Sequence record: OZ346205.1
From: a phage
Strand: one strand, 5' to 3'
DNA: 64,000 nucleotides
In this document: positions 17,568 to 28,804 of the stretch, piece by piece
Position numbering within the stretch: the stretch's first letter is position 1
Layout: each line of letters starts with the position of its first letter
Made by a program: the position numbers and the translations under genes
The notes under the pieces: generated by a model
What the model saw: only the letters and a program-made list of their open reading frames with translations
Told to the model about the DNA's origin: nothing
The model's database searches: none

Positions 17568-17831
17568 TCAGAAACCCTCTAAAAAGCTCTTGTAGAAAAC
17601 AATCTCAGTATCCACACCAGTCACAATCTTGTCGTTCCTGATTTCATCGGTAAGATAGGTGTCAAAACGCAGAACCTGTGTGGTGTTGTCACACATCCAC
17701 TCAGCTGTGACCATTGCGAAAATCTTAGCATCTTCATTATCTGGTGTGAATGTTACCACCTCACCGCACTTAAACTTTTCGATAGGCTGAGTGTTAGCTT
17801 TCGGTTCTGCGATAGTGATTTTTGTGGTCAT
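17568..17831 (-). CDS. 87-aa protein, tandem paralogue family A, copy 3
   Basis: One of three abutting 87-aa ORFs of equal length with shared N-terminal pattern. Confidence 0.5.
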   Translation of the reverse strand: MTTKITIAEPKANTQPIEKFKCGEVVTFTPDNEDAKIFAMVTAEWMCDNTTQVLRFDTYLTDEIRNDKIVTGVDTEIVFYKSFLEGF

Positions 17832-18094
17832 TATTCTCCTCCTTCTTTTGAATAGCTTGTCTCTCCAAGGATGGTAATTTTGGTGTCAAGCTCTGTAACT
17901 TTCATGTTTGGCGGCAGATCGTACAACTCATTATTTTCTAAATCGAACCCCCACACACAATGTTCTCCTGTTTTGACAATCATAACTATGTTTTGAATGC
18001 CGTCTCCGTCGCAACTTACCACGGTCCCACACGGAAAACTGTCTGCACGCTTTTTGTTCTTCACCTTAGAATTGAATACAATGCTGGTAGCCAT
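17831..18094 (-). CDS. 87-aa protein, tandem paralogue family A, copy 2
   Basis: As above; MAT...K.KK....GTVV pattern. Confidence 0.5.
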   Translation of the reverse strand: MATSIVFNSKVKNKKRADSFPCGTVVSCDGDGIQNIVMIVKTGEHCVWGFDLENNELYDLPPNMKVTELDTKITILGETSYSKEGGE

Positions 18095-18357
18095 TATTGT
18101 TCCTCCACCATAACTTCGCCAAGAATTTCTATGCAGGCATCCATTTCTGTAACAACCAAACTGTGAGGTAGTTCTACAAACACCTTTCTGAACAGGTCAA
18201 ATACCCCAACATATATGTTTGCAGGATGTGATTTTACAACAAGTGCTGTATTCACATCCCCAAGTTCATCAACAAACATCACCACAGTGCCCGGAGCTAC
18301 TGAGGACAGATACTTCTTAGTTTTACGGTTTGATGCAAATTTTAACTCTGTTGCCAT
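18094..18357 (-). CDS. 87-aa protein, tandem paralogue family A, copy 1
   Basis: As above. Confidence 0.5.
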   Translation of the reverse strand: MATELKFASNRKTKKYLSSVAPGTVVMFVDELGDVNTALVVKSHPANIYVGVFDLFRKVFVELPHSLVVTEMDACIEILGEVMVEEQ

Positions 18358-18372
18358 AAATAACCTCCTCTC

Positions 18373-19854
18373 TTACTTAGCGTACTCGATTAATTCCACA
18401 GTTTTCCCAAAGCTCGGGATATAATTTTTATTATACCCCTCAGTGAGGACCCATAGAGTATCGTACTTTTTCCACTTGTTGTCAACAACCTTTTGTTCAA
18501 AGTTATGCTCAAAGTATAGGTCGGTCAGGACGATGACATCTTTTGCATTAGGTATGTTGGCATCCAGATACTCGAACACGCAAGCAGCTGTTGTGCCCCA
18601 TGTTGAGTGGACCTCATAGTTGATCATCTCGTCTATGTTGCCGCGAGTGTATACTTTAACCTCTCCAACCTCAGTTGACCAACAGAACATTGTAACCTTA
18701 AACTCTTTATACAGATTGCACAATCCGGTGATTTCATTGAACATTTTCTTTAAAGTTCTTTGAGAGATCGAGCCAGAAACGTCTAAAGCCACCACAATAT
18801 CTATAGTGTTTTCCGGATTACGACCAGGAACAATAACGTGCTGGTTCTTGTTTATAGCCCCAACTTTTCGCATTGTGCTGGTCAAAGACCCAGATCGGCG
18901 ACCAGGTTTTCTGTAGGTCAGTTCGGCCTTTCTTTTAGACAACATACGTTGCTTAATGATGTCTATATAGTTGATTACAGGCTTACCTCTGTTCTTGACA
19001 AACTCACGCACCGCCTCAGGGCAACGGCCTCCGGACGCTTGCATTGCTGCCTCCAGCATATCACCAGAGTCCTGCATGGCCTGATCTTTATCAGATTGGC
19101 TGATTACAGGTTGTGGCTGATCATACCCCATAGCCTTTCCAAGATTATCACTGGTGCCACCGTTCCCACTCATGTGATCATCGGTTTGTCGCTTATCACT
19201 TTGAGAGTTCTCACCTTTACCGTTCTTACTTTTACCGTTATTCTGATCTCTTTGCTTATCAAGAACTGCATAAACGTTCTCAGCAATCCATCCATGAAAC
19301 TTCATGTCGCAGTAGCAGCTGGCTAAGAAGCCAAAAGGCTTACCTTTCATGAACGTAGTGCTTTTCCCCTTCGGGAAGAAAACACAAGGAGGTTTGCTAA
19401 AGTCAACCACAAGGCCTGTGTTGATAACGTGATCACAAGCAATATTGAACAGTTCCGGCTCAAAGCTTTTACCACGGACTAGGTGATCACAGATAATATG
19501 CCCCACCTCATGTGACAGAAGGAAGGCCACCTCTTTCACAGATTTTGGGGAATAGAAAACTTCAGCCATCTCAAACTGCTCGTCAGTTAGAGAAGCCTTA
19601 AGAATAGCCTTGCGTTCATCAGCCAATCCCATAATGAACTCAGGACTGTAATAGATGCGTTTATGGTCGGTTGCCATGGTGGAGCACCATGTGTGGTTTT
19701 CTACGAACTGCAACCCTGACAGTAGTGTGCCATAAAACGGCAGCTTTTCAAGGAGATACATACGTGCAGCCTGCAACATTCTCAGGGCATCATCTTTCTG
19801 CGAGGCAATGATTTCTGAACTTCTGCTATCCATTAAAACTCCAGAAGGGGCCAT
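18373..19854 (-). CDS. vWA-domain protein with zincin-like HExxH motif (493 aa)
   Basis: MIDAS motif in VVALDVSGSIS (DxSxS); HEVGH metallopeptidase-type motif; likely partner of the MoxR-like ATPase at 23485. Confidence 0.65.
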   Translation of the reverse strand: MAPSGVLMDSRSSEIIASQKDDALRMLQAARMYLLEKLPFYGTLLSGLQFVENHTWCSTMATDHKRIYYSPEFIMGLADERKAILKASLTDEQFEMAEVFYSPKSVKEVAFLLSHEVGHIICDHLVRGKSFEPELFNIACDHVINTGLVVDFSKPPCVFFPKGKSTTFMKGKPFGFLASCYCDMKFHGWIAENVYAVLDKQRDQNNGKSKNGKGENSQSDKRQTDDHMSGNGGTSDNLGKAMGYDQPQPVISQSDKDQAMQDSGDMLEAAMQASGGRCPEAVREFVKNRGKPVINYIDIIKQRMLSKRKAELTYRKPGRRSGSLTSTMRKVGAINKNQHVIVPGRNPENTIDIVVALDVSGSISQRTLKKMFNEITGLCNLYKEFKVTMFCWSTEVGEVKVYTRGNIDEMINYEVHSTWGTTAACVFEYLDANIPNAKDVIVLTDLYFEHNFEQKVVDNKWKKYDTLWVLTEGYNKNYIPSFGKTVELIEYAK

Positions 19855-19866
19855 TGGCCCCTGTCA

Positions 19867-20907
19867 TTATTTAACGTGTTTGAAAATACCTGCCAACTCG
19901 GTCATTGTCATGCGGGTGGTCTTCATAAGATCTGTCATAGCTTTCTCCATAATTGGAGATACTACCATAAAGTTTCCTTTAGTGAAACCTTTATTCCAGT
20001 CGGTCACCAACAGGGGTTTAAGTCCAGCTCCAAGACGTTCACCAGTTAAAGCACAGCATTTGCGAATATACGAACTCTTAAATTGGCTGAACGACAGATC
20101 AACTTTCATACCTACATCGTAGAACGTTTGACAATAGAAAGTGTAAGCTTTGGCAATCTCAACATCATCAGGTAGTGCAGGAACCTCTTCTGTAAGCTCC
20201 TCTTCGACCTCCTGAGTCTCTTTTTCCTCTTCATGCACCTGTTGCGTCATTTCTTCAATCTCTTCTGTGATAGGCTCGTTTACAATGTCGGAAATGTGCT
20301 TCTTGGGTGCACGATAAGTAACTTTAGACATCGGTAGCATATCTTCCTCCTCTTCTTCGTCAAAGAGTGCTAGTTTATCCTCTTCCGTTCCATATTGCAA
20401 GATGAAATCTTCAAAAGTATAATCACCTTTCAATTTCTCCATACGCTCTTCGCTCAGGTGGAGCATCATCTGCTGGACAATTTTTCGATCAGTTTCGTCT
20501 TTAATCAAGACTGCAGTCTTTTTATCTACCAGACAGTCCTTTAGAGAGTTGCATCTCAATCCCACCACACAACAGTTATCAACCGCATAAGGACCTTCAT
20601 CATCTATCCGCTCCAGAGATGGGTAGAAAGGATTCCCCAGCCCGTTTTCATCTGTGTGCATGTCAAAAGGTATAAGGGTATAGTCGCATACTCCATCTCC
20701 TAAAAGTTTTTTACCAAATAGGAGATATTCTTCCCATGACAGGTCGAACTCTATATCTCGTTTCCGTGCGTTATTCTGTTTGCGTCTATATTTTTTGAGC
20801 AAGCGCTCTAACTCTTCTGGTGTATAATATTTTTCAAGATTCATGAGTCGTCTCTCGTGCTCTGTAAGTGAAGAAATCGTATCAATTGTCTCAACAGATG
20901 TCAACAT
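19867..20907 (-). CDS. acidic hypothetical protein (about 346 aa)
   Basis: Track ORF; Glu-rich tracts; contains the MSKVTYRA segment also encoded at 22175. Confidence 0.5.
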   Translation of the reverse strand: MLTSVETIDTISSLTEHERRLMNLEKYYTPEELERLLKKYRRKQNNARKRDIEFDLSWEEYLLFGKKLLGDGVCDYTLIPFDMHTDENGLGNPFYPSLERIDDEGPYAVDNCCVVGLRCNSLKDCLVDKKTAVLIKDETDRKIVQQMMLHLSEERMEKLKGDYTFEDFILQYGTEEDKLALFDEEEEEDMLPMSKVTYRAPKKHISDIVNEPITEEIEEMTQQVHEEEKETQEVEEELTEEVPALPDDVEIAKAYTFYCQTFYDVGMKVDLSFSQFKSSYIRKCCALTGERLGAGLKPLLVTDWNKGFTKGNFMVVSPIMEKAMTDLMKTTRMTMTELAGIFKHVK

Positions 20908-20917
20908 CAAAAACGTG

Positions 20918-20946
20918 TTGACTTTACTCTAACTCCACAATATAGT
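20918..20946 (+). promoter_or_regulatory. sigma70-like promoter
   Basis: TTGACT, 17-nt spacer, TATAGT upstream of the plus-strand block. Confidence 0.5.
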
Positions 20947-20986
20947 GCACCCATTCGAAAGAAAACTAACATAGGAGCACTTACTT

Positions 20987-21886
20987 ATGGCAAATCTTAA
21001 CAGTTTTAGTACGCGGTGGAAACAGGACATAACAACCAATCTTTCAGCTGGGGACATCCTTTCTGCAATTTACGAGGCTTTAGATGATAAAGCTACTTCA
21101 AAAGCGGTTTGTACCAACCCATTAATTCCTATAGTGATGAAGGTTATTGAGCGTAGATTGGTATCTGGGTCTGATAAGTGGACATATTTAGATAATGAAG
21201 GACACACCTATTCCAATGGGTATGTCGATATAAAAGTAGAATACGCGGTATCATACCGCCGGAGCGGTTCTGTAACTTTCAACTTCTCTGGAGGTTTTCG
21301 ATCTCTGGCTACCTCACCTTTTGTTTCCTCAGAGGAGAAGTATGAGCTGCCATTTCTTTGGATGATGGCTAACGCGACAGGAAAAACCCCCGTTAGCATC
21401 CGAGTAAAATACAACTACAACGGATCTAGTAAGATCTATGCCGAAAGTGTCTCAGCAAGTTTTTATTTTGTGATGGGGGATGGAATCCTCAAACATATAA
21501 AGATGTGCGATATGCATGATGTTATAAATGAAGTGACTGATAAGAATGTTCTAGTGAAAGACCTCAACAATTTTTATACACCCGGAGACTATTACGTCAG
21601 CCGTCCACTGTGCATCTTTAATGCCGCACACCCTCTAGGTGAGTATTTGATCGCCAATAGCGATATTGCCAATAACCGCTTCGAGGTAGCAAGAGTTCAG
21701 AATGAGGTATTGACATCTTGCAAGAGCGGTGATAAGTTTACCGAAGAAGAGATGGGTGTTTTAGAAATGATGGGATATAAGTGTAGCCTTTGGGTAGATG
21801 AGGTGTTCAATGATTGCATCTATGGACAGGATATTTACCCATTAAAGAAGTATACTGATTCCAGTTTAATTTACGCGGAGATTTGA
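20987..21886 (+). CDS. hypothetical protein (299 aa)
   Basis: Track ORF with RBS AGGAG upstream. Confidence 0.5.
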   Translation: MANLNSFSTRWKQDITTNLSAGDILSAIYEALDDKATSKAVCTNPLIPIVMKVIERRLVSGSDKWTYLDNEGHTYSNGYVDIKVEYAVSYRRSGSVTFNFSGGFRSLATSPFVSSEEKYELPFLWMMANATGKTPVSIRVKYNYNGSSKIYAESVSASFYFVMGDGILKHIKMCDMHDVINEVTDKNVLVKDLNNFYTPGDYYVSRPLCIFNAAHPLGEYLIANSDIANNRFEVARVQNEVLTSCKSGDKFTEEEMGVLEMMGYKCSLWVDEVFNDCIYGQDIYPLKKYTDSSLIYAEI

Positions 21887-22161
21887 CTATGATGAAGTCA
21901 TGTGGTAGTGTATATTATGTTGGTGAGAATGTTCAGGCAGATAGTGTGTGGAAATCCATTAAGTCCACCACCGATGATGCCTTTCTGAGCGGGTTATGTT
22001 TTCCCAGCCCAGGGGACACTCTCCCTTACCCTGGAGATTTTGTTGTCAACAAGATGGACGGTTATACCGTGTGCCTGATGGTTGAAAAAATCTTTTTAGA
22101 CACTAGACACAATCACCGTCTTGTGTTAAAATTTCAAGAATGTAAAATGACAATTGCCTAA
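21883..22161 (+). CDS. hypothetical protein (92 aa)
   Basis: Track ORF; start overlaps upstream stop. Confidence 0.45.
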   Translation: MTMMKSCGSVYYVGENVQADSVWKSIKSTTDDAFLSGLCFPSPGDTLPYPGDFVVNKMDGYTVCLMVEKIFLDTRHNHRLVLKFQECKMTIA

Positions 22162-22174
22162 GGAGACCTTGCCG

Positions 22175-22531
22175 ATGTCTAAAGTTACTTATCGTGCAGC
22201 TATTTACTGCAATGAACACCCAATCAATAATGATGGTCACTGCCTTTTTAAAGAAAATCAATTGGGCTGTATTGTCCTCCCTGATGAAGGGGAAGGTTAT
22301 CTGATTGCGTTGACAGGGTTTGAACCTGAAGCTCTGGAAGCCAATCTTGACTACCTGGTAGAGGAGGGTGCTGCAGACCTGGTTGCCAATGGCCTCTCCA
22401 TAAGCCTTGACGAAGTGGAGCGCTTCATGGGCAATTACCGTGTAGTGCGTGAGTTTACTATCGAGGTGGAAACTCCCGAGTGGGGTAGCCATGAAACTAA
22501 TGCCGAAGAAAAAGAAGAGGAGGTAGAATAA
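22175..22531 (+). CDS. acidic hypothetical protein (118 aa)
   Basis: ATG after RBS AAGGAGA; N-terminus MSKVTYRA lies in the 27-bp inverted repeat. Confidence 0.5.
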   Translation: MSKVTYRAAIYCNEHPINNDGHCLFKENQLGCIVLPDEGEGYLIALTGFEPEALEANLDYLVEEGAADLVANGLSISLDEVERFMGNYRVVREFTIEVETPEWGSHETNAEEKEEEVE

Positions 22532-22788
22532 TGAAAGTGCAGATCTTGACTAATGCCGAGAAGATGTTTATTGAAGATACACCTTTTGAAGCTGGTGAGC
22601 TACAGTTCGTTTATTTTGTTGACTTAGATAAGGTGTTTCCTGCACTGAATCTAGGTTTGGATGAAGTTCCTCATAAGGTTTTGTGCCAAGTTGTTCGTGC
22701 CTTAGCGGCAGAGGGGGAGTTCCACACCCTTCAAGATATCCAGACCTACGGGTATCTTGAACTACAACGAGAAGAAGAGGTGGACTGA
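22531..22788 (+). CDS. hypothetical protein (85 aa)
   Basis: Track ORF; stop/start overlap. Confidence 0.45.
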   Translation: MKVQILTNAEKMFIEDTPFEAGELQFVYFVDLDKVFPALNLGLDEVPHKVLCQVVRALAAEGEFHTLQDIQTYGYLELQREEEVD

Positions 22789-22790
22789 TA

Positions 22791-23171
22791 ATGGCTCAGT
22801 GGAAGACAACAGTTGACCTTCATGATCAGTGGTTAGGACGCATCACTGAAGACGGGAAGCTAGTGGAGTGGGACAATAAGCATGTTAGCGAGTTGGCAAG
22901 TATTGTGGCTGGCAAGTTACGCTCCAAGTTCCCTGAACAACTGGATCCTGATAGTTCAAAGTTCGATCCTGAGTTAGAGGATGTTGTATACTACTTCGAC
23001 ACCGTTGATGACTACGACGCGTGGTTTGCAGCACGGGAGCTTTACCCACAAGGCTCTGCTATGCGCCAGATGGAAGAAGATTATCCTCCGTGTGAGCAAT
23101 TCAATAGTGCAATGACTTGCCTCTATGATTGGGCAGATAAGAACCTTGTCTGGATTCGGACTGCATTTTAG
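22791..23171 (+). CDS. hypothetical protein (126 aa)
   Basis: Track ORF. Confidence 0.5.
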   Translation: MAQWKTTVDLHDQWLGRITEDGKLVEWDNKHVSELASIVAGKLRSKFPEQLDPDSSKFDPELEDVVYYFDTVDDYDAWFAARELYPQGSAMRQMEEDYPPCEQFNSAMTCLYDWADKNLVWIRTAF

Positions 23172-23215
23172 TGGGCAGGAATGGCGGCAAGGATGCTGCT
23201 TAAGGAGTAGTAGAG

Positions 23216-23485
23216 ATGTTATACCAGCAATATGAACTTCGTGCAGAAAAAGAGTTAAATTTTGACAAAGATATTCACAGATATTATTATGGGAAAGTTA
23301 GAGGGCAAGCAAGAAAGTGTACTCCAACACTCTTTTATGCCAGCAGACGACTAGCGCCAGAAGAGGCAACAGCAGAAAGGGTTGCGTACAACTGGAGAGT
23401 CACGTATGATATTGACAGATTCGATGTGATATCTGTTTTGGAAAACTTTGAAAACACTTACACACAAGTAGAGGACTTTTACTAA
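23216..23485 (+). CDS. hypothetical protein (89 aa)
   Basis: Track ORF with RBS AGGAG. Confidence 0.45.
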   Translation: MLYQQYELRAEKELNFDKDIHRYYYGKVRGQARKCTPTLFYASRRLAPEEATAERVAYNWRVTYDIDRFDVISVLENFENTYTQVEDFY

Positions 23486-24669
23486 TGTCAAGAAACGTAT
23501 TCGAAAGTGGTCAAATCACTGTCCGTGAGTTGCCAGCTATTATTCAGTTTGCCCAACGTCATAGCCGATCTGTCCTAATTTTGGGACCAATGGGTGTGGG
23601 TAAAAGCCAGGTGATGAAGCAGATCGCTGATAATATGTTCGGTGAGCGAGATGACAACCTTGTTGACGTGCGACTGTCAGATAAAGATCCTGCCGACTTA
23701 TCTGGGCTACCTATCCCTGTAGAAGCGGATGGAACTACACGTACAGTGTTTGCAATTCCAGAATTTTGGCCTGCGGATCCTGACTGGAGCGGAATTATCT
23801 TTCTGGATGAGCTCACTCATGCAGATAACTACCTGCAAAAGGTTGCAATGCAAATTATGCTTGACCACAAGTGCGGCACCTATGCATTCCCTAAGGGTTC
23901 TGTTTTTGTGGCTGCGGGTAACCGTTCTACAGATGGTGCGGTTCTTTCGGCGCTCGAAGCCCCTCTGGCTAACCGTTTTATCATTGTAGAGGTTACAAGC
24001 AATGCAGAGGTGTTTATTGAGGACTACGCATTCCTCAACGGGGTTCACTCCTCTGTAATTGGGTATCTGAAAAGAGTTCCATCAGCTATTGATAATTATG
24101 AGGCTATGGCTGAGATTAATTGTCCATCTTTTGCCACACCACGATCTTGGGTTGCTGCATCTGACATCTTGCACGATTTTGACAGCGGTATTATTTCTGA
24201 CGCTATGGCCCGTGTTCTTCTACAAGGTGCTATTGGTCACACTGCAGCGGTAGAGATCTGGACTTACCACACCAAGAAACGTAATTTACCGGAAATCGGT
24301 CGGATTATGGCAGGTGGCTGCAAAGAATACGTAGGTCCTAAGCAGCCAGACATTTTGTGGATTCTTGGATCTGAAGGTTGTATCGCTATTCGCAATATGA
24401 TGGAAAATGCAAGTATCTCCGACGAAGATCTTGTTAGCTGTGTGGCAAACTTCCTCGATTTCCTTTGGGAAAATTTCAAGGACGAGAACCGAGATTTTGT
24501 ATTCTCAGTCTTTATGGCGATGATGAAACCTAACGCCTTAGGAAATGCCTTGCTTATCGGTAAAGGGCGTGACAAGATTGTTGCTCAGTTGATCAAAGCA
24601 TATCCAAACCTGATGAAGATTGTAAAAGAGTTTGGTGAAGAGTTTAGCGCCATTTTGGCTAAAGCTTAA
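23485..24669 (+). CDS. MoxR-like AAA+ ATPase (394 aa)
   Basis: Walker A GPMGVGKS; Walker B IIFLDELTHA; AAA_5-like layout. Confidence 0.75.
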   Translation: MSRNVFESGQITVRELPAIIQFAQRHSRSVLILGPMGVGKSQVMKQIADNMFGERDDNLVDVRLSDKDPADLSGLPIPVEADGTTRTVFAIPEFWPADPDWSGIIFLDELTHADNYLQKVAMQIMLDHKCGTYAFPKGSVFVAAGNRSTDGAVLSALEAPLANRFIIVEVTSNAEVFIEDYAFLNGVHSSVIGYLKRVPSAIDNYEAMAEINCPSFATPRSWVAASDILHDFDSGIISDAMARVLLQGAIGHTAAVEIWTYHTKKRNLPEIGRIMAGGCKEYVGPKQPDILWILGSEGCIAIRNMMENASISDEDLVSCVANFLDFLWENFKDENRDFVFSVFMAMMKPNALGNALLIGKGRDKIVAQLIKAYPNLMKIVKEFGEEFSAILAKA

Positions 24670-25108: not shown

Positions 25109-25609
25109 GTGAAAATTAAGATCTTTGCTATTATTTTGAGCGCACTTTTATCGCTGCCTGTTGTTGCAGCACCAAAACAAAAAGTATATCATACTTGCAA
25201 GCCATCAGATACTAAGGAAAACATTCTGGCATGCAATATCTACAGGGAAGCTAGAGGAGATGGCACGATGGGTATGCTGGCATCTGGGTTTGCCACACTA
25301 AACAGGAAATCCCACCCTAAATACCCAGACACTATAAGAAAGATTGTCTACCAACCTAACCAGTTTTCGTGGACAAACCACGGCAAAACTTTTAAGGTGA
25401 CAGAAAAAGATTCATGGGATCACGCTAAAAGTCTTGCAAAGATGCTTCTAAAGGTCTATAATAACAACCATGTTGCATACATGGCTATGGACATAACAGG
25501 TGGAGCAACACACTACCATACAACCAAAGTACGACCGAAATGGGCAAAAAAGATGCAGAGGACAGCTCAATTCGGGAGCCATATCTACTACAAGGAGCGC
25601 AATAAATGA
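25109..25609 (+). CDS. SleB/CwlJ-family cell-wall hydrolase with signal peptide (166 aa)
   Basis: GTG start; hydrophobic signal-like N-terminus; NIYREARGDG ... VYQPNQFSW matches Hydrolase_2 motifs. Confidence 0.65.
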   Translation: MKIKIFAIILSALLSLPVVAAPKQKVYHTCKPSDTKENILACNIYREARGDGTMGMLASGFATLNRKSHPKYPDTIRKIVYQPNQFSWTNHGKTFKVTEKDSWDHAKSLAKMLLKVYNNNHVAYMAMDITGGATHYHTTKVRPKWAKKMQRTAQFGSHIYYKERNK

Positions 25610-27588
25610 TCGTAAACAGTAATGAAACTAAAGCGGTACTAACCGGGAATATGGAGGTCACCAGGGGCTCAATTTCTCTGAACAAAGAGACTTTTGGGCT
25701 AATCATTAAAGGGATTTACGAAGATAAGGTGCTGGCAAGCTGCCGTGAACCAATCTTCAATGCCGTGGACTCCCATGTTGAGTCTGGACGGGGTGATGTA
25801 CCGATCATTATTCACTCTCCTACAGACCTTGAACCATACTTCTTTGTGCAGGACGTTGGATTGGGCATGTCAGAAGAGATGGTCCGCAACACTTTCATGA
25901 ACCTCGGGGAGTCAACCAAGCGCAACAGCAACGCTCTGGTAGGTAATAAAGGTGTTGGTTCAAAGGCTCCGTTCAGCATGGTGGACACTTTCGATGTTAT
26001 CAGTGTGCACAATGGTGTTGAAAGCACATATCTATTGTTCTTGGATCAGGGTATCCCAAACGTTACCAAGATCCGTGAGCGGAAGACTGAAGAGCACAAC
26101 GGGGTAAAAGTTCAGTTCCATGTTAAGAAAGAGCATGTCCTGAAATATCGCACTGCTATTGCATCGTGCTTACGCTATGCGAAGTTTCCGTTCATCGTCA
26201 CCGATCCTATGACCAGTAAGATGTTAGAAGGTGACAAGGTTGAGGCACAGTATCATTACGAGAAGGATGGCTGGAAAATGACCATCCTGAAAGGTTATAC
26301 CAGTTCTGATGAGAGCCGTGTTGTGATGGGTCACCAACCTTACCGCTCCAAGTTCCTGGAGACATTGACCGATTACCCTGCAATCTGCGTGGAAATTCCT
26401 ATTGGGGATTGCAATATTAACCCTGGGCGTGAATGGACCATAGAGGGCCATGACGACGGTGGATTCCAGGATCGCCTGGAGGCCTTTGTCAAAGAAGGTA
26501 TACGTCTTCGCGGGGCAGAAGTTGTTGCAGAACTGGAGACGGCAAAAACCTCCGCAGAAGCACGTGAAATGATGAAGAATAGTGGAGTGTTCGGACACAT
26601 CTTCGGCAAAAACTTTATGTGGAACCGTTGGGAAGAAACAGGGCTTGGCGACTTAGGCGATTGTGAAATTTTCGCTGGCGGCTTAAATAAAGGCCGCATA
26701 GGCTATGCTCGTTACGGAAAGTCGGAGTTCTTACGAGGTGTATACCTTGTATTTAACGACGGAGACGGCAAATATAACCGGAATAAGTGTAACTACTTAA
26801 GCGAGATCACCGGACGCAACGTTTTCTATTGCCGGAACACGGATCTGGTGAAAGAGTTTAAAGAGGCGGCACACCATCCGTTCTTTGCAGATACGGTCAA
26901 ATTGTTATCGGAGCTTCCACGCCGACCTGCGAAGAAAGGTGAAACCAAAACTCGTTACGAGCCAGGCTACTGGGTTAAGAAGCTTAGAGAGGATGGCTAC
27001 TTCCATCGTGAGCGCCTCACGAAGGCAGAGTTCAAGAAGATTAAGCATTGCATCCCTTATGAGGGGGATATCCAACGGGGAAGCTGCTGGCTGGGCCAGA
27101 TGAGTAACATCTACCAGCAAAATTATGACCGTGTGCGTGCGGCACTCCAGATTCCTGAAGGGGAAGACCTGTACCTGGTATCAGAATCCCGTCTGCTTTG
27201 GACTGATCCTGATTGCCAGTATGTTACAGAGAAAAATGTGGAACATTTGTTGAAAGAGGACGCCTGGAAATTCTTACTGACTCGCGCAGCAAATGAAACT
27301 TCATATGACAACCTGTATAGACAATTAGGGAAAATTATCCCCATGCAGGATTTTGGAAATTATCGGCCACATTTCCACAAGTGGGAAGGTAACACCGCGT
27401 GGAAGCACAGTGAGCTAAATCATCGTGCCAAAATCTTAATCGCCAACCGGGTTAAGTGCGGGAAGGCCTATATTGCAAGATTGGAAAAGAAATATCCACT
27501 TTTGAAGCATGTGGGCTTGAAATATTGGGACACTTCTGCTATGATTGAATACCGTGAACTGATCGATACAAAGAATAACATCAAATAA
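25606..27588 (+). CDS. rIIA: rIIA-like GHKL (HATPase_c) ATPase (660 aa)
   Basis: Bergerat-fold boxes: EPIFNAVDSH (N), VQDVGLGMS (G1), GNKGVGSKAPF (G2); followed by an rIIB-like gene. Confidence 0.7.
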   Translation: MIVNSNETKAVLTGNMEVTRGSISLNKETFGLIIKGIYEDKVLASCREPIFNAVDSHVESGRGDVPIIIHSPTDLEPYFFVQDVGLGMSEEMVRNTFMNLGESTKRNSNALVGNKGVGSKAPFSMVDTFDVISVHNGVESTYLLFLDQGIPNVTKIRERKTEEHNGVKVQFHVKKEHVLKYRTAIASCLRYAKFPFIVTDPMTSKMLEGDKVEAQYHYEKDGWKMTILKGYTSSDESRVVMGHQPYRSKFLETLTDYPAICVEIPIGDCNINPGREWTIEGHDDGGFQDRLEAFVKEGIRLRGAEVVAELETAKTSAEAREMMKNSGVFGHIFGKNFMWNRWEETGLGDLGDCEIFAGGLNKGRIGYARYGKSEFLRGVYLVFNDGDGKYNRNKCNYLSEITGRNVFYCRNTDLVKEFKEAAHHPFFADTVKLLSELPRRPAKKGETKTRYEPGYWVKKLREDGYFHRERLTKAEFKKIKHCIPYEGDIQRGSCWLGQMSNIYQQNYDRVRAALQIPEGEDLYLVSESRLLWTDPDCQYVTEKNVEHLLKEDAWKFLLTRAANETSYDNLYRQLGKIIPMQDFGNYRPHFHKWEGNTAWKHSELNHRAKILIANRVKCGKAYIARLEKKYPLLKHVGLKYWDTSAMIEYRELIDTKNNIK

Positions 27589-27598
27589 GGAGACCAAG

Positions 27599-28804
27599 AT
27601 GATTTTCATCTACGAACATTTCAAAACCCGTAAAGAAGCACGAGACCGCCGTGCAGAACTTGAGAAGAAGGGTTTCACATGTGCCATTGAGAAAGGCGAC
27701 ACAACCTGGACACTGGCAGTGGGTGCCCCAGAGTTGTTCGATCCTGACCGTGACAGCGTCTGCTACACCCGTGAGGATTTTGAAACCCGCGAAGAGGCCC
27801 GTTTATCCCGCTATGGATTGGAAGATAATGGTAAGTACGCCATGATCTTAGACTTAGGCGAAGGTTCCGTTAAACGTTGGGGCGTGGTATACCCACTGTG
27901 TGTTGTTCACGGTGTGGGGTTCACTGGGGTGGCAATCAAGTCAGAAGAACCTTTAGTAGAAGTTAAAGATCCGGTGCTGGAGGTGGTGAGCAGTGTGTCT
28001 CAGCAACAAACTCGAAGCATCGAGCCTTTGGTAGTTATTTGTGGGGAACTCCTCCAGATCACCTGCAACGAAGGCATTTTTGAAATTCGCCGCAGCGAAA
28101 GTGAGGAAGTTTACCAGAAAGTCTTCGACCATATCTCTGTTCAGGAATATGACGAGGCAATTGGTGAAATCCTTGTCTGGCTGGAACGCAAGAATGAGTT
28201 CACCACACTTGCAGACAACCTGATCATGAAAGATGGTAAGCTCTACTACTACGGTGTAGAGATGCGATCCACCATTGCAAAGAAAATTGAGAAAGATTAT
28301 GCAGACGGAACGCTGGATGACCGCTATGTGAAATTCCTCGTTCGCCTGCTACGCAATCCTTCTGCAAAATCTGTAAACATGCTCTACGATTTTATGCAGG
28401 CCAATGATATTCAGATTGCAGAAGATGGTCGAATCATTTGCTACAAAGGGGTTCAGTTTAACGGTAGCAAGTGGGTGGATTGGCACAGTGGTAAAGTCCC
28501 ACAATACCAAGGTGCTTTTGTATCCATGCCTCGTAACTTTGTAGAGGATGATCCTGAAGCTGCGTGCTCCTATGGCTTACACTGCGCCAGCAAAGAGTAT
28601 GCGAAGAGCTACGGCACTGTAATGCCTGTCATGGTTGACCCTGCAGATGTGGTTAGTGTGCCATACCAACACAATAGCGCTAAGTGCCGTGCATGCCGCT
28701 ATGAGATTGTGGTAGCTCCGGAAGCACGCAAGGACGGAGACCCGATTGAATACGTGGTTGACCGAGACGGTAACACTATCGACATTCTTTACGAGGAGGC
28801 GTAA
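27599..28804 (+). CDS. rIIB: rIIB-like protein (401 aa)
   Basis: C-terminal region (NDIQIAEDG..., MPRNFVEDD...GLHCASKEY, VDPADVVSVPY...CRYEIV) resembles T4 rIIB as recalled; synteny with rIIA-like gene. Confidence 0.6.
   Translation: MIFIYEHFKTRKEARDRRAELEKKGFTCAIEKGDTTWTLAVGAPELFDPDRDSVCYTREDFETREEARLSRYGLEDNGKYAMILDLGEGSVKRWGVVYPLCVVHGVGFTGVAIKSEEPLVEVKDPVLEVVSSVSQQQTRSIEPLVVICGELLQITCNEGIFEIRRSESEEVYQKVFDHISVQEYDEAIGEILVWLERKNEFTTLADNLIMKDGKLYYYGVEMRSTIAKKIEKDYADGTLDDRYVKFLVRLLRNPSAKSVNMLYDFMQANDIQIAEDGRIICYKGVQFNGSKWVDWHSGKVPQYQGAFVSMPRNFVEDDPEAACSYGLHCASKEYAKSYGTVMPVMVDPADVVSVPYQHNSAKCRACRYEIVVAPEARKDGDPIEYVVDRDGNTIDILYEEA

Follow-up and report, generated by a model that had tools for sequence, protein, structure and literature searches.

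The locus considered here raises the question of whether two phage proteins encoded on opposite strands are the halves of one machine and, if so, when and on what such a machine would act. It lies in a stretch of 64,000 nucleotides (nt) of sequence record OZ346205.1, below called the window, and comprises the gene of a MoxR-class AAA+ ATPase of 394 amino acids (aa; 23485–24669, plus strand) and a 493-aa open reading frame (ORF; 18373–19854, minus strand), whose product joins a zincin-like HExxH motif (HEVGH) to a vWA domain with the metal ion-dependent adhesion site (MIDAS) motif DVSGS. Both ORFs had been described in an original prediction for this DNA and were recovered together with the two motifs by translation; the genes stand on opposite strands, 3.6 kb apart, and flank a strand switch at about 20.85–20.99 kb. 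The 7-kb region round them is 97–99.5% identical to more than 100 Vequintavirus (rV5-like) coliphages in GenBank, and the window belongs to an rV5-like coliphage. In GenBank relatives the pair is already labelled, the one gene as ‘MoxR ATPase’ or ‘ATPase’, the other as ‘putative metallopeptidase’ or ‘VWA-like domain containing protein’.

Gene linkage and the split order

A partnership of the ATPase with the HExxH/MIDAS protein had been predicted, and was followed up in 112 viral and 80 bacterial loci, which were fetched and scanned with hidden Markov models of both families, sub-alignments having been used in the locus searches. In 85 of the viral loci the vWA gene is immediately preceded by the ATPase gene in the same orientation, with a median gap of 151 nt; a further 19 are divergent at 3.4–5.1 kb, seven are cut off upstream and one is without an ATPase gene within 10 kb. 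The adjacent same-strand order is thereby found in 85 of the 105 informative viral loci, and in bacteria the ATPase gene adjoins the vWA gene upstream in all 72 loci with enough flanking sequence (80 in total). The chromosome of Sulfurivermis fontis is an example of such an adjacent pair among ordinary chromosomal genes. The pair is adjacent as well in other phage-like contigs, in N4, in RaK2 and in phiTE, where the MoxR and vWA genes are separated only by a homing-endonuclease-like ORF.

Two loci deviate in other ways. A metagenome-assembled genome of the Nitrosomonadales (JAHFQY010000030.1, locus L178, 4948–7248) holds a single 767-aa frame with AAA_5, DUF2201_N and DUF2201, a single case which may be a natural fusion of both partners or an assembly error. 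In locus L014 (IMGVR_UViG_3300045988_163358) a vWA-peptidase gene of 45% identity is present, and no ATPase homologue was found in the 10 kb to each side of it; no other locus among the 105 viral ones with sufficient flanking sequence is of this kind.

Both proteins are homologous to known neighbours in phage N4. In profile–profile comparison with hhalign the ATPase matched N4 gp24 (E 4e-35, 99.9%) and the vWA protein matched gp25 (E 4e-56, 100%), and the pair would on these grounds be the rV5-lineage version of the gp24/gp25 module of N4. N4-like phages have 14 core genes, among them gp24 and gp25 (‘vWFA domain’), both of which are middle genes (PMC4193335); RaK2 annotates its own copies as ‘gp24-like’ and ‘gp25-like’. 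Moreover, when both proteins are scored against the window copies, their bit scores are correlated over 95 loci (Pearson 0.98, Spearman 0.59). Given the linkage in more than 170 other loci, this parallel divergence and the homology to the adjacent gp24 and gp25 of N4, comparative evidence argues that the ATPase and the HExxH/MIDAS protein almost certainly work together, as had been predicted.

In the window the partner is present, but the order differs in that the ATPase gene does not immediately precede the vWA gene in the same orientation. All 19 divergent loci belong to rV5-like phages and their relatives, the only lineage so arranged, and since Certrevirus, a member of the same subfamily, has kept the co-directional order, the split order of the rV5-like phages is derived.

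It is this split divergent order that is atypical, not the domain fusion. The fusion of a vWA domain with a putative metalloprotease had been regarded as unusual, a view that had to be given up: it is a curated two-domain architecture in Pfam, and the family profile found 33,791 clusters at 50% identity among 1.84 billion representatives, 14,664 of them at E ≤ 1e-30. In the best 150 representatives the best-scoring match covers most of the two-domain profile. By tblastn the vWA-peptidase protein was detected in 664 of 50,697 phage records, the carriers including Vequintavirinae and relatives, jumbo phages of the RaK2, GAP32 and G17 types, N4-like phages of many hosts, Atu_ph07 and a cyanophage, and a scan of bacterial genomes yielded at least 573 confirmed matches.

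Separation of the genes might also mean that the proteins have been uncoupled functionally in rV5-like phages, one or both acting alone or with other partners such as the product of the Srd-like gene upstream of the vWA gene (19867–20844, minus strand; annotated ‘anti-sigma factor’; PHROG 3118, with weaker Srd and endonuclease VII-like matches). This gene immediately precedes the vWA gene in all split-order loci and in L014, and is absent from the Certrevirus loci; it probably belongs to the same leftward unit as the vWA gene and is taken as context, a role as a component not being claimed for it. The restriction of the divergent arrangement to the rV5-like lineage would fit an uncoupling, as would L014 with its vWA and Srd-like genes and no ATPase gene within 10 kb. 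However, 19 of 19 split loci keep both genes within 3.4–5.1 kb, every catalytic, MIDAS and ATPase residue is retained and the proteins diverge in parallel, so that uncoupling appears very improbable.

The putative zincin–vWA protein and its probable partner ATPase

The putative zincin–vWA protein (DUF2201_N and DUF2201, homologue of N4 gp25) consists of an N-terminal putative metallopeptidase domain (residues 1–205, 19240–19854), in which HEVGH occupies residues 115–119 (19498–19512) and is followed by H124 (19483–19485) and D141 (19432–19434), and of a C-terminal vWA domain (residues about 350–493, 18373–18807) with a complete MIDAS, comprising DVSGS (residues 358–362, 18769–18783), T421 (18592–18594) and D445 (18520–18522), all on the minus strand. 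Both Pfam domains were matched above their gathering scores and in N-to-C order, DUF2201_N (‘putative metallopeptidase’) with E 4.4e-28 and 99.1 bits against a cut-off of 23.2 and DUF2201 (‘VWA-like’) with E 6.1e-11 and 43 bits against a cut-off of 26.4, which places the protein in the DUF2201 family. Because HEVGH and DVSGS are embedded in these significant matches, they are not chance motifs. Across 44 homologues, with identities as low as about 20%, no variation is seen in H115, E116, H119, H124, D141, D358, S360, S362, T421 and D445. The label ‘HNH endonuclease’, which PHROG 1314 and RefSeq attach to this family (NC_008720 gp25, NC_022323, NC_041871), was rejected as a propagated mislabel because Pfam detects no HNH domain.

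Translation probably starts at the second ATG (19833) and yields a protein of 486 aa, since GenBank relatives are annotated with this start, a GGAG stands 7 nt upstream of it and the first ATG, that of the 493-aa ORF, is overlapped by a GC-rich hairpin. This hairpin (19846–19862; GGGGCC-AATG-GCCCC read on the minus strand, AGGGGCCATTGGCCCCT on the plus strand) is situated between the Srd-like and vWA genes; for the plus strand it received a terminator-like score.

A zincin-like context of the HExxH motif, also part of the original prediction, is supported by the Pfam family itself and by profile searches. With the profile of the N-domain (residues 1–205) the ten best matches among PDB sequences were all zincins, led by the minigluzincin MJ1213 (E 0.005) and followed by HtpX, BepA and an M48 peptidase (E 0.1–0.65), the alignments spanning the edge strand and the HExxH helix; a phmmer search with the vWA protein alone against PDB returned noise only. 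Sub-threshold Pfam matches to M48, SprT-like, M78 or DUF5700 occurred in 7–17 of the 44 family members. The AlphaFold2 (AF2) model of the protein (pLDDT, predicted local distance difference test, 84) has strands at residues 49–69 and then a helix at 106–121, and a fold search with the full-length model found vWA neighbours only, namely integrin I domains, BatB, the VWA domain of NorD and the MIDAS domain of Rea1/MDN1. The glutamate of HExxH is the general base of zincin peptidases. Owing to the zincin-only profile matches in PDB, the sub-threshold Pfam matches and the invariance of this glutamate, the comparisons favour a real, though putative, peptidase of the M48-like or minigluzincin type.

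The ATPase (homologue of N4 gp24) shows a Walker A motif GPMGVGKS (G34xxGxGKS41, 23584–23607), a Walker B motif with D108 and E109 (23806–23811), N146/R147 (23920–23925), R164 (23974–23976) and R220 (24142–24144), all on the plus strand and all invariant in 40 homologues; from their positions, N146 would be sensor-1, R164 the arginine finger and R220 sensor-2. Profile searches had been proposed for both proteins. The window ATPase alone stays below the gathering score of the curated Pfam models AAA_5/AAA_3 (AAA_5 16.7 bits, cut-off 22), and by phmmer against PDB it obtained P-loop-only matches to Clp/p97 and found no MoxR structure; the profile of its family has midasin as its best PDB match (8e-11). 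Homologues at E of about 1e-44 have precomputed Pfam matches to PF07726, PF07728 and PF20030, some of them marked weak or faint, and carry AAA_3 (MoxR), AAA_5 and sometimes a bpMoxR domain; the bacterial partner has AAA_5. In the AF2 model (pLDDT 86) a beta-hairpin is found between beta2 and beta3, and DSSP assigns a short strand pair before beta4, so that the model shows the helix-2 beta-hairpin insert and the pre-sensor-1 hairpin of the MoxR class; it resembles CbbQ, NorQ, the MoxR protein CHU_0153, midasin and dynein AAA modules. The assignment to the MoxR class is thus well supported, but as a divergent branch, because the margin of MoxR-type over Hsp100 matches is small.

Directly before the ATPase gene lies an ORF of 89 aa (23216–23485, plus strand), known from close relatives only, whose stop codon overlaps the ATG of the ATPase gene (TAATG), an overlap that suggests translational coupling of the two. 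This ORF also contains a strong sigma70-like match (23262–23290, 11/12).

The likeness to NorQ, CbbQ and NorD, which are among the closest structures, bears on a second interpretation, namely that the pair is a cofactor-insertion or enzyme-maturation factor and not a protease (like NorQ/NorD, CbbQ/CbbO or CoxD/CoxE), which remodels a metalloenzyme, for instance a phage enzyme of nucleotide metabolism, with HExxH holding or delivering the metal. Characterised MoxR-vWA pairs are indeed maturation or activation factors, sub-threshold VWA_CoxE matches were obtained in 23 of the 44 family members and the pair recurs beside genes of dCTP deaminase, thymidylate synthase or ThyX. Against this, not only the histidines of HExxH but also its glutamate are invariant, the domain has its nearest relatives in sequence among true peptidase families, and NCBIfam models of chelatases (CobS/CobT, BchI/BchD) or maturation factors matched neither of the two proteins nor their N4 or bacterial homologues; a maturation factor is therefore regarded as rather improbable.

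Timing and the proposed mechanism

In its gene map the window agrees almost to the coordinate with phage CarlMeissner (Bas48). The tail-fibre genes, which lie on the plus strand (1 to about 13.8 kb), are abutted by a leftward cluster of small genes (13.9–20.8 kb, minus strand), to which the vWA gene belongs, and from 20,987 onwards a rightward block on the plus strand contains the ATPase, a cell-wall hydrolase, rIIA, rIIB, a helicase, methyltransferases, a primase/helicase and DNA polymerase. The ATPase gene here heads the block of rIIA/rIIB, helicase, primase and DNA polymerase; elsewhere in phages the pair stands beside genes of RNAPII, dCTP deaminase, ThyX or thymidylate synthase, and 5'-3' exonuclease.

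Between the two units, two candidate sigma70-like promoters of the TGTTGAC type lie back to back (20876–20946; 20906 to 20876 on the minus and 20916 to 20946 on the plus strand), with -35 elements arranged as an inverted repeat, GTCAACA-N9-TGTTGAC. For TGTTGAC-N17-19-TANNNT the window has 12 occurrences where 0.6 would be expected; the pattern resembles the early-promoter consensus of Certrevirus (PMC7344957); the promoter on the ATPase side is matched by the strict pattern in the relatives L006 and L008–L011 as well. These promoters are likely the starting points of the leftward (vWA) and the rightward (ATPase) units, and their arrangement suggests that both transcription units start together.

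The following mechanism is proposed. The ancestral operon of ATPase and vWA gene would have been split, and its genes would now head away from a shared divergent promoter region of early type, for which reason both proteins would probably be made before the late genes. The ATPase presumably forms a hexameric ring, and the protein of 486 or 493 aa would be its vWA co-factor, to which a small M48-like zincin peptidase is fused N-terminally. Through its MIDAS the vWA domain may capture an acidic residue or a peptide of the target, be it a protein or a complex; the ring, by hydrolysing ATP, would remodel the target or the co-factor, and the HExxH domain would then cleave the target. MoxR-vWA pairs are understood as a chaperone with its co-chaperone, peptides being bound through the MIDAS (PMC7159879), and the grip-and-remodel part of the mechanism is put forward by analogy with such characterised systems; the cleavage step would be contributed by the fused zincin. 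The favoured reading, given a probability of about one half, is that the machine works in the cytoplasm of the infected cell, in the pre-late or replication phase, on a host or phage target outside the virion.

Several observations weigh against this reading. Regarding the enzyme, the best PDB match of the N-domain profile is borderline, and vWA matches filled both lists of the fold search, so that a zincin fold match of the N-domain was not obtained. Regarding timing, the promoters were assigned by consensus only, and the one on the vWA side has no match in the relatives under the strict pattern. Literature searches on DUF2201, COG3864, the rV5 MoxR protein and the metallopeptidase of Schitoviridae yielded no functional experiments on the module; a CRISPRi-ART study with N4 and the rV5-like EdH4 reports nothing on these genes, and they are not mentioned in two genome papers on Vequintavirinae and in a proteomics paper. 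Finally, the sole published proposal places the function in virion assembly (PMC7824862).

According to this proposal, which was made for group 2.2 jumbo phages by analogy with a MoxR-vWA pair needed for the tail development of the Acidianus two-tailed virus (PMC7824862), the pair would be a chaperone-protease that helps to build head or tail structures, the fused peptidase trimming structural proteins. Besides having been published, it is in keeping with the presence of the family in RaK2- and GAP32-like jumbo phages and with the leftward cluster of the window abutting the tail-fibre block at 1–13.8 kb. In N4-like phages, RaK2, unrelated metagenomic phages and the window, however, the pair is found in early or middle, nucleotide-metabolism or replication neighbourhoods and not in structural modules, gp24 and gp25 of N4 being middle genes, and bacterial chromosomes commonly carry this two-gene operon with no phage genes nearby. 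Because gene context argues against it, an assembly role is rated lower and considered unlikely.

Starting from a pre-late action on a non-virion target, a further step may be ventured, albeit with low confidence: the module could be an ATP-dependent ‘guided’ protease of the pre-late phase in many unrelated virulent phages (N4-, rV5- and RaK2-like as well as marine), directed at a single host protein or complex, such as a factor of defence or housekeeping, which it would cut; it would then be a widespread device of host takeover or counter-defence and not an assembly chaperone. The rV5-like phages would have brought the half with the peptidase into an early operon, behind an Srd-like gene of host takeover.

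Some neighbouring features of the two units deserve mention. The vWA-peptidase gene is followed directly by three paralogous ORFs in tandem, each exactly 264 nt long (87 aa; 17568–18357, minus strand), which occur only in close relatives, in one to three copies. These paralogues, the 89-aa ORF coupled to the ATPase gene and a 126-aa ORF after the ATPase gene were rejected as extra components of the module because they are confined to close relatives. At the other side of the strand switch a protein of 299 aa (phrog_12338; 20987–21886, plus strand), likewise found in close relatives only and without Pfam match, is called ‘putative alpha 1-3 fucosyltransferase’ in several records. The genes rIIA/rIIB follow a few genes downstream of the MoxR-like ATPase gene both here (25109–28804, plus strand) and in N4 (locus L118), a neighbourhood common to otherwise unrelated phages; in the window a SleB-type cell-wall hydrolase with a signal-peptide-like N-terminus intervenes.

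Comparison with known systems

The genes, their annotation, their pairing and the idea of a chaperone-peptidase are all already on record. The window adds to this only the derived split order, and the present analysis the explicit link between the rV5-type pair and gp24/gp25 of N4 together with the numbers on linkage. The module concerned is very widespread, with 664 phage records and tens of thousands of protein clusters. The split in rV5-type phages amounts to a natural experiment, which indicates that the two genes need not be co-translated, and Escherichia coli phages with the pair (N4, the rV5-like EdH4, the BASEL phage Bas48 and relatives) are tractable for target finding.

Remote from the window pair in sequence are CbbQ/CbbO, NorQ/NorD, RavA/ViaA and Rea1/midasin, in none of which a zincin is fused to the vWA protein. 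The ternary conflict systems built on MoxR and vWA proteins (Kaur et al., 2020; PMC7159879) share the same core couple, whereas a linked third component (VMAP, inactive STAND, FtsH or beta-propeller) is missing in the window, and the window pair is phage-encoded and not a host defence; in addition, PADLOC defence models gave no match above noise, and the neighbours are phage early and replication genes. Bacterial operons of AAA_5 and DUF2201 (‘predicted metal-dependent peptidase’) consist of the same two families, always with the ATPase gene before that of DUF2201, but they are cellular, chromosomal and adjacent, with about 22% identity to the vWA protein of the window.

Among phages, the MoxR and metallopeptidase-vWA pair of group 2.2 jumbo phages was described by Iyer et al. 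(2021; PMC7824862) with the same architecture and the same reading as chaperone, co-chaperone and peptidase, so that the chaperone-protease suggested by the original prediction agrees with an earlier phage proposal. RaK2- and GAP32-type jumbo phages carry the same family as the window; in contrast to that pair, which was assigned to virion assembly in jumbo phages, the genes considered here are split and lie in the pre-late region of a phage of 137 kb. Finally, gp24 and gp25 of N4 (Schitoviridae) are homologous to the window proteins over nearly their full length and alike in domain content and conserved residues. They differ in gene order, being adjacent and co-directional in N4 and divergent and 3.6 kb apart in the window, and in length, the rV5-type proteins (394 and 486 aa) exceeding those of N4 (352 and 380 aa) and carrying insertions specific to their lineage, both in the peptidase domain and in the C-terminal region of the ATPase.

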